Made by a program: the position numbers and the translations under genes
Shown here: piece after piece, positions 40,443-45,077 of the stretch
Layout: each line of letters begins with the position of its first letter
Numbering within the stretch: the first letter of the stretch is position 1
Assembly: GCA_041651055.1 (NCBI GenBank)
Contig: JBAZJW010000002.1
Coordinates: 90,980 to 154,979, forward strand
Length of the DNA: 64,000 nt
From: Minisyncoccota bacterium
GTDB taxonomy: Bacteria > Patescibacteriota > Minisyncoccia > Phycocordibacterales > UBA5272
Direction of reading: 5' to 3'
The notes under the pieces: generated by a model
Told to the model about the DNA's origin: nothing
Database searches by the model: none
Seen by the model: the letters and a program-made list of their open reading frames with translations, nothing else

Positions 40443-41033
40443 TTATGAACAGTTGCTGTTGCAGTATTCGCTGCACACCGTCTGTTCGCATTTGTTTGCC
40501 TGATCTTCTTTGTACGTCTCTTTGTTGATACCGTTTCTTTTCACCAACATCAGAAAAAACGGATTACCGCAGTCAACTCTGTTTTCTTCACAGCCCCCAA
40601 ATCCATCATTAAGTTCCTGATTGTAATCAAAAAACGGACCATTGCTCAGACAACAACATGTGCTGCACTCATTACTCATGCCTCCGCACGCTTCGTTCCT
40701 CCCAGCAGTATATTCCTTTGTATACTGAATGCATGTTTCCGTGCACGTTCCATTTACACAAACGTTGAAATCACCGCAGTCCTGGTCATACATACAGGCG
40801 TCGCCGGTGCTGGAATCATATTGACGTGCATCGAATGTACATGAATAGGTGCCGTCTGAAAGCACAGAACAGTCGTTTTTGTTGTAACAGAACACCATTC
40901 CGGTGTCAAAGTCACTCAAACACAACTCTGAATCACCGCCGCACCCATTCAGGCTGATGATTGCCCAGGCCACCAGCACGGCCAGGATCATGAAACAAAC
41001 GGCGTAAAGGATCTCTCTAAAAAATTCCTTCAT
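40443..41033 (-). CDS. Cys-rich secreted/lipoprotein-like protein
   Basis: N-terminal TM/signal peptide ending SLNGC; more than 25 Cys; own promoter and AGGAGGT RBS. Confidence 0.45.
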   Translation of the reverse strand: MKEFFREILYAVCFMILAVLVAWAIISLNGCGGDSELCLSDFDTGMVFCYNKNDCSVLSDGTYSCTFDARQYDSSTGDACMYDQDCGDFNVCVNGTCTETCIQYTKEYTAGRNEACGGMSNECSTCCCLSNGPFFDYNQELNDGFGGCEENRVDCGNPFFLMLVKRNGINKETYKEDQANKCEQTVCSEYCNSNCS

Positions 41034-41045
41034 TTGAGTGACCTC

Positions 41046-41081
41046 CTACCCACATTCTACCACAGCTATAATATCCTGTCA
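41046..41081 (-). promoter_or_regulatory. promoter cassette copy (TTGACA-N17-TAGAAT)
   Basis: RC reads CTTGACAGGATATTATAGCTGTGGTAGAAT...AGGAGGT..ATG. Confidence 0.55.
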
Positions 41082-41098
41082 AGTATCAAAACGTATAG

Positions 41099-41503: not shown

Positions 41504-41515
41504 AGATATCTCCTT

Positions 41516-42919
41516 TCAAATCTGGAAGATGGTTTCCTTGATGTGCTCAGTGTTGTTGAGATCGGAAGCGTCAATCGACCACAGCTTGTCGGACAGGGAC
41601 TTGAGGTCGTCGCCGTCTGCGGGTACACCACCAATGACCACAGAAAAGAGCCTGGCACCCAACTTCTTCTTGGTATTAGAGAGTGCTTCCTTATCGGGGA
41701 TGTTGCACAAACCGTCTGTGATGAACACAATGTCGGCTTTGGACATGGAAACGTTCTCCGTAACAGAGGAGAATGCCTTTCCAAGGGCTGACGAAAAATC
41801 TGTGCCTCCGCCGAAAAACATTTCCATGCACTTGAGCAAATCCTCGGTGTTGAATGGAGAGGTGAACTCCTGCTCGTGTCTGACGCACTCCGAGAAGTGG
41901 ATGATGCGGAAAGCGCGCTTTTGCTTAGAGGCCACGAAAGCCATCGCAAGTCCTACTGCTTTTGACCAGATCTCGGGTGCCCCTACCATGGAACCACTGT
42001 TGTCGATGCACACGACGATGGGACCCTTCTTCTCGGTGATGTGCTCGTCGAGCCGGTACTGTACCAGCCCCTTCTCCAGGTACCTCTTGAAGAAATCGAG
42101 TTCGAGATCCCCAGCCACCAGTTTCATGGCCTCAGCGGGGATCAACCGGCCGATGTCATTGCCCATCTCGATGTCGGTGATTTCATCGGGTCCCGGCTGC
42201 TTCTTGTTGGCCTGGTGCTTCTCCGCTTCGTTCTTGAAGCGACCAGCCATTTCCATGATCTGCTTCAGCTTGGCGCTGTTGCGGATCATTTCCATGACGC
42301 GCAGCTTCTGCTGGTCGCCGGTTAAAGAAGCCGCCCCGGAAGTCGAATTGTCATATCCAAAGACGGAGTTTGCTTCGCTGGCATCGTCAAGGGCTTCCTT
42401 GGCCTTTCCGAGCCCACGGCGGATTGCCTGGCGCACCTGGTAGCCATCCAGGTTATTGATGGCCTCAGACCACGCTTTCTTTGAATTGGCCAACTCCTGC
42501 TCCAGCTTTTCCTTGGTAACTTGGTAGTTGGGCCGATCCTGCATGTCTTCCAGGCCGTTCAGATCCCTTTCCACGTCCTTGGGATTGCGATCTTCCATCT
42601 TGGGCAGGGTACTGAGGATCTGCTCGGACAAAACGGAGGTGCCAAGGCCAGACTGGAAGGAATCAAACACCGTGCCTTGGCTGCGAATATCCTTCCACTC
42701 CTTCATGCCGCGCATCTCGTTGAACACCTTGGATGCCCACTCAGGAGAAGGATTATCAAAGTCGGGGTTGGACTGGAATAGGCTACCAAACACACCGGCT
42801 TGGAAGTCCCTGAAGTCCGAGTAACCCTTCGAGACACCACTGTTTTCCACCGTCTTCAGGCCACCGTGCGCCTCGAAGAAGTTGTCAAAGGACATCTTTT
42901 CCCAGGAGGAAAGCTTCAT
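41516..42919 (-). CDS. von Willebrand factor A (VWA) domain protein, MoxR partner
   Basis: MIDAS motif VVCIDNSGSM ... GGGTDF; start ATG 42919 is 10 nt after the MoxR stop with a GAGGG RBS. Confidence 0.75.
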   Translation of the reverse strand: MKLSSWEKMSFDNFFEAHGGLKTVENSGVSKGYSDFRDFQAGVFGSLFQSNPDFDNPSPEWASKVFNEMRGMKEWKDIRSQGTVFDSFQSGLGTSVLSEQILSTLPKMEDRNPKDVERDLNGLEDMQDRPNYQVTKEKLEQELANSKKAWSEAINNLDGYQVRQAIRRGLGKAKEALDDASEANSVFGYDNSTSGAASLTGDQQKLRVMEMIRNSAKLKQIMEMAGRFKNEAEKHQANKKQPGPDEITDIEMGNDIGRLIPAEAMKLVAGDLELDFFKRYLEKGLVQYRLDEHITEKKGPIVVCIDNSGSMVGAPEIWSKAVGLAMAFVASKQKRAFRIIHFSECVRHEQEFTSPFNTEDLLKCMEMFFGGGTDFSSALGKAFSSVTENVSMSKADIVFITDGLCNIPDKEALSNTKKKLGARLFSVVIGGVPADGDDLKSLSDKLWSIDASDLNNTEHIKETIFQI

Positions 42920-42929
42920 GACAGCACCC

Positions 42930-45077
42930 TCACAGGGCGATGGAAGCCACGATTTCCTTGCGCCAGGAGTCGATCTTGGTCTTGGTGTCCACCAGCTTCT
43001 TGGTCTTGGCGGCCTCGCGTCCGGACACTTCCGCGTCGATGGCCTTGGAAATGTCCTTGAGGATGCCGTTGGCCTGCATGGCGTCGGTGTCCTTCTTGGC
43101 GCTCTTCTGCCACACACCGTACGCTTCCTTGGCGGCGTCCATGAACTGGCTGGCTTTGAGATTCAGTGGGTTGGTGTATGCGGACAGCACCGTCTCGATG
43201 GTGCGCCGCTGATCGGGCTTGTCCCACAGCATGTTGGACAGCACCTCGATCTCGTCGTCGGTCACTTCCTGGTGTCCACGGATCAGAGCATATGCACGCA
43301 GGGTATTGACGATGGACTTCCAGCGCCGGTCACTGACCTGAATGCCGTGCTTCATGCGGAGTTCCATGCAGATTGACCGGATGGACTGCAGCACACCGGC
43401 CGGGACCTGCACCTTTTCCATCATGGAGCGCAACTCATTGATGTCTTCCATGGTCAGCTTGGTGGAGATCTCCTTCTTACCGACCGTTCCTGTGGGGTTC
43501 ACCAAATCCAGGAACAGGTTGTCATCCTGGATGTAATCGACCCAAAACCTGGTCAAGAAACGGTCGTACAAGGCACCCAACTCCTCGCCCTGGGGAAGCT
43601 CATTGCTGGCCCCGATGCATGAGAGGAGAGGAATTTTGACAGGCTGTCCGTTGTTGAAGAAGATGCGCTCATTGATGGCACTGAGCAGGCTGTTGAGCAA
43701 TGCCGAATTGGACTTGAAACAGTTGTGTGTAACAGCCATTGCTCTACCAGCAAGGAACAAGTTATCCTCAGAATCCACAGAAACACATTTAGTAGATCTG
43801 GGCGCAACCTCCGTGATTGATGTAATGCGTAGATGTTTTCTTTGCACTAATTTCGGAATATTTTTGTGACTCCTGCACAAAAACATAGGCATGTCCGGGT
43901 CAGCCCTGAAATTCACTTTCCAACACTGCTTGTGTGCCCCCTTCTTTCCAATTCGGTTGTCCTTGGTGGGCCTCTTTGAACACTTTGCGCCCAGCGTGCG
44001 TAGTATTTCGACAAAACCATCAATAATGTGTTCATTGGTGTTGCTAAATGTGCATGTTCCACATTCCATGATGTGTCCTTCGGTGTCCATCAATCCTTGT
44101 ATCAGTCTCATTCTCTGGTGTATAGATCCCCTTTTGTATGCTAATGGAATGTATTTTCCGCTACCAAGGTATGTACTTCTGTTTTTCAATAGCCCCAAAT
44201 CCCCTATGTGCGTTCTGAATCCAGTTCCTGCCAATGAAATAACTTCTAATTTACTTGATTTCTTGTGGGCACCGGTAATCCTTGCATTTGGTGTTGTTTT
44301 TTGAATTTCGTGTGCAGTATGTGCAGCGATTTCCTTTCTTACATAAATTTCCATGTTCCATGAATTGCCGTTCCCTAGCCAGCACCCGAGTGTGTACGGA
44401 TCTGCTGGTAGCATGTTTTCTTGTAACTCAACCGGCTTTGGGAGCGGTATTTGCCATCTCTTCCCGGTAACGTGTTCATTGTACATCTCTTCTGCGGTTC
44501 TGACTTTGTGTGCAGTTTTGTGATTGCTCCTGCTCTTTCTGCACAGCCAACGATGACCAGCATCACATACCAATGACTCCCCATTTTCAAACACGAATTT
44601 GTAGCATTTTTTATTCTCGAACACCTTTGTGACACCAGTTACAATGGTTGGTTTTCCGCTTGCCGACAATAGGGTATCCCCTACTTTGATGTCTCTAATA
44701 GTCGTCCATCCGGTAGGTGTTGGTATTGGCGTGTCTAGATCCAAGGCTTCATCTAAAAATACGATGTGCGCCTCTGGTAACTTGCCAGAGGTGACGCGGC
44801 GGTACTCGTCCTGCTTCAGCCCCTTGAGGCTCACCGGGCCAAACACCTCCTCCGGTGTGCTGAACTTGGTGAGCAGCCACTCGAAGTATCCAGCCCCGTC
44901 GATGGCATTGCACAGGCAGCGCGCAGCGTAGCTCTTGGCGGTCCCGGGGGGACCCAACAACAGGATGTGCGTGCTGCTGATGAGGGCTGCGAGCATGGCC
45001 TCGATGATGTGCCCGCGCTCGGCCATAGCCTGGTTGAGTTCACTGATGAGAGATGAAACTTTGTCGAGAACTGGCAT
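42930..45077 (-). CDS. MoxR-family AAA+ ATPase interrupted by an intein
   Basis: Walker A LLLGPPGTAKS; Walker B HIVFLDE; sensor region resumes as CFKSNSALLNSLLSAINE after a 342-aa insertion. Confidence 0.8.
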   Translation of the reverse strand: MPVLDKVSSLISELNQAMAERGHIIEAMLAALISSTHILLLGPPGTAKSYAARCLCNAIDGAGYFEWLLTKFSTPEEVFGPVSLKGLKQDEYRRVTSGKLPEAHIVFLDEALDLDTPIPTPTGWTTIRDIKVGDTLLSASGKPTIVTGVTKVFENKKCYKFVFENGESLVCDAGHRWLCRKSRSNHKTAHKVRTAEEMYNEHVTGKRWQIPLPKPVELQENMLPADPYTLGCWLGNGNSWNMEIYVRKEIAAHTAHEIQKTTPNARITGAHKKSSKLEVISLAGTGFRTHIGDLGLLKNRSTYLGSGKYIPLAYKRGSIHQRMRLIQGLMDTEGHIMECGTCTFSNTNEHIIDGFVEILRTLGAKCSKRPTKDNRIGKKGAHKQCWKVNFRADPDMPMFLCRSHKNIPKLVQRKHLRITSITEVAPRSTKCVSVDSEDNLFLAGRAMAVTHNCFKSNSALLNSLLSAINERIFFNNGQPVKIPLLSCIGASNELPQGEELGALYDRFLTRFWVDYIQDDNLFLDLVNPTGTVGKKEISTKLTMEDINELRSMMEKVQVPAGVLQSIRSICMELRMKHGIQVSDRRWKSIVNTLRAYALIRGHQEVTDDEIEVLSNMLWDKPDQRRTIETVLSAYTNPLNLKASQFMDAAKEAYGVWQKSAKKDTDAMQANGILKDISKAIDAEVSGREAAKTKKLVDTKTKIDSWRKEIVASIAL
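43722..44747 (-). mobile_element. intein (Ala1, class 3-like) with LAGLIDADG homing endonuclease
   Basis: Block A ALDLDTPIPT; block B GHRW; LAGLIDADG motifs LGCWLGNGNSW and LIQGLMDTEGHI; block F Cys (STKCVSVD); C-terminus AVTHN followed by Cys+1. Confidence 0.65.

Follow-up and report, generated by a model that had tools for sequence, protein, structure and literature searches.

A DUF6744-MoxR-VWA gene module of mobile elements, with an intein-split ATPase, in a metagenomic contig of tailed-phage gene content

In NorQD, CbbQO and Rea1, the MIDAS (metal-ion-dependent adhesion site) captures an acidic residue of the client, and ATP hydrolysis by the AAA+ ATPase remodels that client. In phages, pairs of a MoxR-type AAA+ ATPase and a VWA protein are a known kind of gene couple, annotated since 2007 without an assigned function; the authors of the 0305phi8-36 genome listed theirs among the non-structure genes, and the MoxR-vWA-peptidase pairs of group 2.2 jumbo phages have been proposed as assembly chaperones (PMC7824862). 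Moreover, the Pfam family bpMoxR has its source in a set of MoxR-vWA ternary conflict systems described by Kaur, Burroughs, Iyer and Aravind in 2020 (PMC7159879). The locus described here lies in a 64,000-nucleotide stretch (the window) of contig JBAZJW010000002.1, whose genes are those of a large tailed phage, and it encodes a MoxR ATPase split by an intein, a VWA protein and, at some distance upstream, a protein of the DUF6744 family.

The conserved unit of this locus is the trio DUF6744-MoxR-VWA, a widespread module of mobile elements found in tailed phages, prophages and large plasmids. The initial annotation had instead joined five minus-strand genes of the interval 40443-45077 into one module, namely the intein-split MoxR, the VWA protein, a coiled-coil ORF of 62 residues (cc62), a zinc-ribbon ORF of 66 residues (Zn66) and a Cys-rich ORF of 196 residues (Cys196). 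All five open reading frames (ORFs) are present where it placed them (Table 1), and the MoxR-VWA pair is real, with matched domains and an intein bounded at the Walker B motif. The five-gene grouping, on the other hand, has to be abandoned, because the co-occurrence check finds no homologue of the small ORFs cc62 and Zn66 in 86 related loci and because the conserved partner, the DUF6744 gene, is located outside the flagged interval, on the MoxR strand and 1.9 kb upstream of that gene, with six small ORFs and a tRNA-Lys gene in between. Of these 86 loci, 80 come from IMG/VR, where a relative is encoded on at least 164 contigs. In iterative searches of the loci with hidden Markov models (HMMs), MoxR is found in 84 of 87 sources and DUF6744 in 55 of 87, every time on the strand of the VWA gene. 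When only the 70 non-redundant loci are considered, 68 contain MoxR and 42 contain DUF6744 (same strand as VWA), while 19 carry a reverse transcriptase (RT) gene instead, none has both and nine have neither. On long contigs encoding homologous VWA proteins (L001-L005) the three genes are consecutive, all close DUF6744 homologues (42/42) carry PF20529, and look-ups anchored on DUF6744 return the MoxR-VWA pair in three of three loci, sometimes with one or two small ORFs inserted. A collection scan with the close DUF6744 alignment retrieves already known loci only, the broad alignment being too divergent for such scans.

The conservation of the pair in phages, which the initial annotation had set against an origin as ordinary host cox/nor accessory genes, is borne out by matches to two PHROG families (PHROG 19600 at 1.7e-85 and PHROG 24053 at 6.4e-52), by the IMG/VR contigs and by the isolates 0305phi8-36, MTATph1 and CL131, so that these are not host-only cox/nor genes; neither cox nor nor genes are found in the window or in the related loci. 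Beyond the viral sample, a genome survey with one genome per species yields 453 VWA relatives, and 20 of the 43 genome loci with full flanks contain DUF6744 (19 DUF6744 only, one with an RT match too). The trio is present in genomes of Pseudanabaena, Phormidium, Moorella, Alicyclobacillus, Acidobacteriota and Heliomicrobium. Specifically, in Pseudanabaena and Phormidium (L102-L120, L140) a genome harbours several copies, two large plasmids bearing one each, and each of these trios is followed by an AAA_24 (RecA/Sak4-like) gene.

Genes of DNA metabolism recur around the module. In Moorella phage MTATph1, DUF6744 (Pfam 5.6e-61), three tiny ORFs, MoxR and VWA adjoin ribonucleotide reductase, with a Holliday-junction resolvase and thymidylate synthase nearby; an Alicyclobacillus prophage-like region displays the order DnaG zinc ribbon, single-stranded DNA-binding protein (SSB), SMC-like protein, DnaN, RadC, DUF6744, MoxR and VWA; and NAD-ligase and primase genes are also close to the trio on long contigs. 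In Aphanizomenon phage CL131 the order is LPD29 protein (gp148), MoxR, VWA and DnaN, the pair of 0305phi8-36 lies near RecQ, and a PD-(D/E)XK nuclease stands beside the pair in 13 loci. Pfam censuses of 133 and 83 neighbour proteins depict heterogeneous nearest neighbours in the viral loci (RT, 12; PD-(D/E)XK nuclease, 5; ligases, DnaN, a single Acb3 and a single Imm5-like protein), while DnaN (4) is the commonest neighbour of the genomic trios, together with helicases (including RecD-like), SSB, ParB and AAA_24.

The three genes also share a compositional signature. The G+C content at third codon positions (GC3) is 0.78 in DUF6744, 0.77 and 0.81 in the two MoxR exteins and 0.72 in VWA, and elsewhere it is 0.44 (intein), 0.43 (cc62), 0.34 (Zn66), 0.53 (Cys196) and 0.32-0.39 (tail genes). 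The sister phages show the same excess, and module genes exceed their neighbours in GC3 in 67 of 70 loci, which makes it a property of the module, attributable to expression-linked codon choice or slow amelioration. A recent horizontal transfer into this phage only was considered and is ruled out by the same recurrence.

As annotated, the MoxR-VWA pair stands behind a host-type promoter with a perfect sigma-70 consensus, within the non-structural block, and the Cys-rich gene possesses its own promoter copy and is a separate transcription unit. Both belong to a 30-nt promoter cassette with four copies in the window against zero expected, plus one weaker copy. All copies fall in the minus-strand non-structural block and none among the structural genes, a confinement that fits a separate temporal class dependent on the host RNA polymerase; one of them forms a terminator-promoter unit with the T-run and the perfect hairpin of 10 bp that come before it. 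Moreover, a direct repeat of 168 nt (96%) encompasses the MoxR promoter, the 5' untranslated region and the first 20 codons, and its upstream copy opens a chimeric ORF of 54 residues beginning with MoxR's MPVLDKVSSLISELNQAMAE. The 4.3 kb between the repeat copies contains DUF6744, a free-standing HNH gene, the tRNA-Lys gene and small ORFs, and the repeat marks a rearrangement of this segment that explains the displaced position of DUF6744. The HNH endonuclease gene (GC 0.33, GC3 0.31) directly precedes the DUF6744 promoter and probably arrived recently as a mobile insertion. Among the small ORFs separating DUF6744 from MoxR, where the tRNA-Lys(UUU) gene also lies, one encodes a protein of the PF17420 "GP17 superinfection exclusion" family (E 1.4e-23); none of the six small ORFs has a counterpart in the 86 related loci.

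In the 19 non-redundant RT loci, an RT of about 300 residues is encoded just downstream of VWA on the same strand, DUF6744 is absent, and the linkage has endured even where VWA identity has fallen to 29-39%. In a neighbour-joining tree of VWA proteins these loci make up a single clade, so that the mutual exclusivity of DUF6744 and RT reflects a single ancient switch; repeated swapping of the two partners was entertained and is rejected on the same topology. The RT of this sister clade matches the PADLOC retron RT models at about 1e-75 with no clear type. The VWA-RT spacers do not align with one another, no Rfam match to a retron msr RNA is found in these loci, and no A-biased template and variable repeats of a diversity-generating retroelement (DGR) occur within +/-10 kb. 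DUF6744 is not a degenerate RT, a relationship that hhalign rates at a probability of 0.7%.

The two proteins of the pair are most similar, among characterized systems, to RavA and ViaA. Spliced MoxR aligns to E. coli RavA structures over about 280 residues (residues 5-281, E 2.4e-57, roughly 40% identity); the alignment ends at MoxR residue 281 (RavA residue 290), leaving the LARA region unmatched. Its best NCBIfam model is RavA (NF010054), at 228.5 bits and thus below the equivalog cut-off of 681, and that of the VWA protein is ViaA (NF008230), at 100.3 bits against a cut-off of 500, collinear over residues 207-415. The label "CoxD/CoxE-like" given by the initial annotation is therefore valid at the level of the generic domain (VWA_CoxE) and not as a family, the best named models being RavA and ViaA; its observations that exactly 10 nt separate the MoxR stop from the VWA start and that the motifs DNSGSM and GGTD both lie in the VWA protein are accurate. 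The real start of VWA is MKLSSWEK, the longer mechanical ORF being an artefact of an in-frame stretch upstream. The MIDAS residues D306, S308, S310, T373 and D402 are invariant in 34 VWA homologues, and the AlphaFold2 (AF2) model (pLDDT 87) predicts an all-helical N-terminal part of about 240 residues followed by a C-terminal VWA fold with an intact MIDAS, which Foldseek relates to VWA domains with probability 1.0, the MIDAS domain of MDN1 and the NorD subunit of NorQD being among those matched.

When the whole 715-residue MoxR is used as a query, most phage matches are inteins inside terminases and helicases (identity to terminase inteins up to 37%), while the intein-free protein of 373 residues can be aligned over its entire length with phage MoxR-like ATPases. 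Judged from its residues, the intein has the class-3 (WCT) signature. This class is defined by a non-nucleophilic residue 1 combined with Trp B12, Cys F4 and Thr G5, the prototype being the DnaB intein of mycobacteriophage Bethlehem (PMC2807308); here, residue 1 is Ala, block B reads GH-R-W (with Trp two residues past the His), block F (K-C-V-S-V-D...F) is spaced like Cys320, Asp324 and Phe330 in the prototype, and the end is T-H-N before Cys+1. The LAGLIDADG-like endonuclease part scores below threshold with both Hom_end (19.6 bits, cut-off 21.1) and LAGLIDADG_3 (15.2, cut-off 22.5). Its first motif, GCWLGNGN, corresponds to GIWLGGG in the intein of locus L032 and is without the acidic residue; its second, GLMDTEG, corresponds to GLIDADG there. 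The GC3 of 0.44, against 0.8 in the exteins, points to a separate origin of the intein, and none is found in the MoxR Walker B site of the other 86 loci. The L032 MoxR (742 aa, 7696-9924) contains an unrelated class-1 LAGLIDADG intein inside the Walker A P-loop (GPPGTGK|C...SHN|S), and hence the motifs of MoxR-family ATPases have been invaded at least twice.

The third member, DUF6744, is predicted by AF2 (pLDDT 86) to combine an alpha/beta N-terminal part (pI 9.1) with three long C-terminal helices. Sequence comparison with the PDB returns coiled-coil noise only, no effector-like domain is detected in the protein, its matches in BFVD are uncharacterized viral proteins only, including gene 25 of the haloarchaeal tailed virus HVTV-1, and the family is unmentioned in the literature searched. 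In HVTV-1, DUF6744 is gene 25 (L099 7815-8966, Pfam 3e-19), the AAA ATPase is gene 59 and the vWA protein is gene 57; the attribution of the module to genes 100-104 of this virus proved wrong, DUF6744 being far from the AAA-vWA pair there.

The genes downstream of the pair are of a different nature. cc62 and Zn66, both lineage-specific and outside the conserved module, are probably co-transcribed with the MoxR-VWA pair, as passengers of its transcript. Cys196, described in the initial annotation as a further member of the operon, does not belong to the module either: it has its own promoter, a single homologue, and it tracks the end of the tail-fibre gene. Its N-terminus displays hydrophobic residues 8-27 followed by L-N-G-C31, with 21 Cys in the 166 mature residues; compared with the lipobox [LVI][ASTVI][GAS]C, the Asn at -2 is atypical, and the homologue reads A-V-G-C. 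The protein resembles no family in Pfam, PHROG or NCBIfam and has no homologue in the HMM search of the 86 loci, and when 1.84 billion representative proteins are scanned in full with HMMER, one homologue is returned (P0164), which shares 42% identity over 181 aligned residues (BLASTP). P0164 is encoded in the sister contig L091, 3.6 kb downstream of MoxR-VWA and past an unrelated AAA_5 and DUF2201 pair, where its gene and a fibre gene with the ending "...AVPP" converge at the 3' end of the latter; Cys196 likewise converges on the 3' end of the gene for the 1017-residue tail fibre, whose C-terminal end "...AVPP" recurs in L091. The same junction in both contigs indicates that the conserved neighbour of Cys196 is the fibre gene and not MoxR-VWA. 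Phage T5 has a comparable arrangement, in which the small lipoprotein gene llp, with its own host-type promoter, lies beside the gene for the distal fibre/receptor-binding protein. By analogy, Cys196 is best read as a candidate Llp-like envelope or exclusion lipoprotein. The intervening pair of L091 (4453-6746) is a second ATPase-adaptor couple right after MoxR-VWA, composed of AAA_5 and then DUF2201_N/DUF2201, a VWA-like domain with a metallopeptidase-like N-domain; distant relatives of this AAA_5 protein occur in cyanophage S-TIM5 and PA5oct-like jumbo phages.

Regarding the genomic setting, the window derives from a 183,779-bp metagenomic contig that NCBI labels as a Candidatus Paceibacterota metagenome-assembled genome, and its large-tailed-phage gene content implies that the contig is either mis-binned or a phage of a bacterium of the candidate phyla radiation. 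A megablast comparison of the region with 50,697 phage records gives no match, nor does tblastn of a structural protein of 559 residues, which points to a phage lineage without a sequenced isolate relative. The 1017-residue fibre, in whose C-terminal half YGV(Y/F)G-type Gly/Tyr repeats follow one another over a long stretch, has no Pfam and no PHROG match. Within the minus-strand block, a TnpB gene with no adjacent TnpA is found between two promoter-cassette copies, the gene for a 783-residue protein sits behind one copy, and the protein encoded at 54079-54618 is a putative phage metallopeptidase according to Pfam (5e-29), for which the PHROG family label "transposase" is probably wrong.

Table 1. 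Positions of the module genes, regulatory elements and other features in the window, followed by the RT loci of the sister clade
Feature	Position	Strand	Details
DUF6744 (PF20529) protein, 276 aa	46981-47811	-	Pfam E 2.2e-17, 63.4 bits (cut-off 27), residues 8-270
MoxR ATPase, 715 aa with intein	42930-45077	-	bpMoxR PF20030 E 2.8e-51, 174 bits (cut-off 27); AAA_5 2.4e-17, 63.7 bits (22); AAA_lid_8 4.9e-16, 58.7 bits (22.8)
MoxR N-extein, aa 1-110	44748-45077	-	Walker A GPPGTAKS, Walker B FLDE; aligns to E. coli RavA; GC3 0.77
Intein, 342 aa (MoxR aa 111-452)	43722-44747	-	Directly after Walker B FLDE; ends THN before Cys
MoxR C-extein, 263 aa	42930-43721	-	Rest of AAA+ core, AAA_lid_8 lid, ~90-aa helical tail; no LARA domain
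MoxR stop to VWA start	42920-42929		10-nt gap
VWA protein, ViaA-like adaptor, 467 aa	41516-42919	-	VWA_2 E 2.2e-12 (48 bits); VWA_CoxE 2.5e-07 (30.8 bits)
MoxR promoter	45113-45141	-	TTGACA-17-TGgTATAAT (extended -10), then AGGAGG ribosome-binding site
Weaker promoter copy before DUF6744	47834-47862	-	TTGACT-17-TACAAT with TG; repeat family D3, 72% identity
Cys196 promoter	41054-41082	-	TTGACA-17-TAGAAT
Further promoter-cassette copies	49429-49457; 50940-50968	-	
Hairpin and T-run before the cassette near 50940	50987-51010		
Direct repeat, 168 nt	45017-45184; 49333-49500	-	
Chimeric ORF, 54 aa	49229-49393	-	
cc62, coiled-coil ORF, 62 aa	41315-41503	-	AAGGAG ribosome-binding site; coiled-coil matches sub-threshold only
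Zn66, four-Cys zinc-ribbon ORF, 66 aa	41099-41299	-	CxxC pairs C13/C16 and C54/C57; weak PHROG 17873 and 9007
Cys196, acidic lipoprotein-like protein, 196 aa	40443-41033	-	22 Cys, pI 4.1
tRNA-Lys(UUU)	46363-46435	-	
PF17420 family protein	46483-46776	-	
HNH endonuclease gene, free-standing	47958-48527	-	
TnpB / IS605 OrfB	49560-50699	+	Cas12f-like TNB domain
783-aa protein	51018-53369	-	Weak Eco57I-type methylase domain just under Pfam cut-off; no PHROG match
Putative phage metallopeptidase	54079-54618	-	
Non-structural block	40443 to about 54600	-	
Distal tail fibre, 1017 aa	37378-40431	+	
Structural genes	up to 40431	+	Baseplate J, DUF4815, beta-helix and Laminin_G_3 proteins, 1017-aa fibre
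RT loci (sister clade, other contigs)			L024-L026, L030, L031, L033, L034, L038, L039, L042, L043, L045, L048, L049, L059, L064, L070, L075, L086

The best explanation, offered tentatively, is that the trio is a mobile-element module working as an ATP-driven remodeller of a nucleoprotein client associated with DUF6744. The MoxR precursor would be inactive until the class-3-type intein splices out and restores FLDE-CFKSNS. By analogy with RavA and ViaA, the spliced MoxR hexamer may then dock on the helical N-domain of the VWA protein, whose MIDAS would capture an acidic residue of the client, and ATP hydrolysis would remodel, load or release that client, as in NorQD, CbbQO and Rea1. DUF6744, with its basic alpha/beta N-domain and long helical C-terminus, could be the dedicated client or a target-recruiting subunit; a role in nucleic-acid binding is suggested by its charge and its neighbourhood alone, as no significant fold match in the PDB accompanies them. 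The arena may be, though with somewhat less than even likelihood, the DNA replication and recombination programme of the element before late gene expression and not virion assembly, because the neighbours of the module are DNA-metabolism genes and because strand and promoter class differ from those of the tail genes. Several observations weigh against this reading. DUF6744 is missing from 28 of the 70 loci and is therefore not obligatory; in HVTV-1 it lies 17 kb from the AAA-vWA pair, on the opposite strand; and a chromosomal branch of Binatia, Deltaproteobacteria and Syntrophobacteraceae (L122-L177) has the pair without DUF6744 or RT, adjoining a solute-binding protein and divergently transcribed FAD-dependent oxidoreductases, a setting that hints at a client of cellular, metabolic nature. 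Foldseek of the DUF6744 model against the PDB gives nothing at E<=0.001, the best being CENP-N and the RnlA NRD at a TM of about 0.2. The "early" timing of the cassette promoters is what we infer from their sequence, and the +1 residue of the intein is Cys and not the Thr or Ser typical of class 3, with only one WCT intein with Cys+1 on record in PMC2807308. Lastly, the early regions of phages mix replication and counter-defence genes, so that neighbourhood alone cannot separate the two.

Counter-defence or host takeover, in which MoxR-VWA targeted by DUF6744 would dismantle or sequester a host immunity complex or another complex early in infection, is a close rival, albeit rather unlikely in itself. 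According to a transposon screen, phage Bas54 depends specifically on a MoxR ATPase gene to overcome the predicted defence DS-28 (bioRxiv 10.1101/2025.11.20.689424), but in rV5-like coliphages no match at E<=1e-5 is found for either the spliced MoxR or the AAA_5 protein of the sister contig, and thus the Bas54 gene cannot be linked to this family. The accessory block with the GP17-like protein (PF17420) and many ORFans, and the occasional Acb3 and Imm5-like neighbours elsewhere, are in line with such a role, while genes of replication and recombination are the most frequent among the annotated neighbours. The patchy distribution and the varying third partner (DUF6744, retron-type RT, LPD29 in CL131) also speak for it, although DUF6744 gave way to RT only once, at the level of a clade. 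The ATPase does match the Pfam model derived from the MoxR-vWA conflict systems (PMC7159879), yet PADLOC finds no match for MoxR, VWA, Zn66, Cys196 or DUF6744, and for cc62 a coiled-coil artefact only. The same two results bear in the same opposite directions on an element-borne defence or exclusion against competing elements in the manner of the ternary conflict systems, with DUF6744 or RT as sensor or effector, a proposal that appears improbable. The retron-type RT directly downstream of VWA in the 19 loci speaks for it, offset by the lack of msr-like RNA in Rfam and of DGR repeats there and of an effector-like domain in DUF6744; VMAP, beta-propeller and FtsH third components are absent from the window neighbours and from both Pfam censuses; and the several copies per genome in filamentous cyanobacteria speak for it too, one copy per replicon fitting a maintenance function just as well.

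An assembly chaperone for the virion, tail or fibre, as proposed for p618/p892 of Acidianus two-tailed virus (ATV) and for the group 2.2 jumbo phages, has a similarly low probability. The MoxR and VWA proteins of ATV and of the virus SMV are detectable relatives, the ATV proteins being distant (27-30% identity, E 1e-6 to 5e-11); and the block abuts the tail-fibre genes, with Laminin_G_3 proteins coming after it on the same strand in L002, but in the window it is encoded opposite to the structural genes and under a different promoter class, and those genes lack both the cassette and the GC3 signature. Moreover, most loci lie among DNA-metabolism genes, and plasmids carry copies too. Less probable still is an auxiliary module of host physiology with RavA-ViaA-like action on respiratory complexes or the inner membrane. 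RavA and ViaA are the closest characterized relatives and the cellular branch of the family stands beside FAD oxidoreductases, as this proposal would have it, but the scores are far under the equivalog cut-offs (228 against 681 and 100 against 500), LARA is absent, and the phage/plasmid branch has DUF6744 and DNA-metabolism neighbours instead. The remodeller of a DUF6744-associated client is thus retained as the preferred reading. A broader proposal, of doubtful standing, is that the trio and the MoxR-VWA-RT arrangement represent an undescribed ternary system in which the RavA/ViaA-like AAA+ machine switches its nucleic-acid-handling partner on or off, serving counter-defence or conflict between elements or else replicon maintenance, and which would here also be gated, after translation, by a class-3 intein in the active site of the ATPase.

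What the locus adds to the phage pairs already annotated is the ternary module with DUF6744, the sister arrangement with RT, the intein at Walker B, which is a rare WCT example with Cys+1, and the exclusion of the small ORFs and of the lipoprotein. A vague "chaperone pair" thereby becomes a defined three-component system whose partners can be tested and whose carriers can be cultured (Moorella phage MTATph1, Alicyclobacillus prophages, Pseudanabaena plasmids); if the machine did serve counter-defence or replicon maintenance, it would constitute a new functional class of AAA+/MIDAS remodellers.

Compared with known systems, the lipoprotein candidate Cys196 is like the T5 Llp-type lipoproteins in lying, with its own host-type promoter, beside a fibre gene, a position kept in one sister contig, and differs in its lack of sequence similarity to any family and its unusual Cys content. 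The intein shares with class 3 the Ala in first position, Trp B12, Cys F4 with Asp at +4 and Phe at +10, Thr G5 and nearest relatives in phage terminases, and departs from it in Cys+1 and in a host site, the MoxR Walker B, absent from the other sampled loci. As for the pair, 0305phi8-36 (gp66/gp63, named "MoxR-type metalloprotein chaperonin" in 2007), MTATph1 and CL131 encode MoxR at 35-38% and VWA at 25-30% identity, fall into PHROGs 19600 and 24053 and place the genes in non-structural regions, with DUF6744 in MTATph1; in contrast, they have no intein, and the upstream gene is not DUF6744 in 0305phi8-36 (ORF067, no Pfam) or CL131 (LPD29). ATV p618 (MoxR) and p892 (VWA), found by tblastn, are likewise a virus-encoded pair, but they are virion-associated and implicated in extracellular tail growth, whereas the module described here, by its position, is non-structural.

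The MoxR-vWA ternary conflict systems resemble the module through the bpMoxR match and through the combination of the couple with a system-specific third component; here, however, that component is DUF6744 or a retron-type RT, and no effector or protease cascade is seen. NorQD, CbbQO and Rea1-MIDAS involve other ATPase subfamilies and clients, with no nor or cbb genes near the present pair, although the predicted VWA model superposes on NorD and on the MIDAS domain of MDN1. Finally, the module differs from E. coli RavA-ViaA in that the phage pair scores below both equivalog cut-offs, lacks the LARA and triple-helix regions, resides on mobile elements, is linked to DUF6744 and has its ATPase split by an intein, while it agrees with RavA-ViaA in the alignment of the AAA+ core and lid, in an adaptor made of a helical N-domain and a C-terminal VWA domain, and in a gene order with the ATPase first and the adaptor second.

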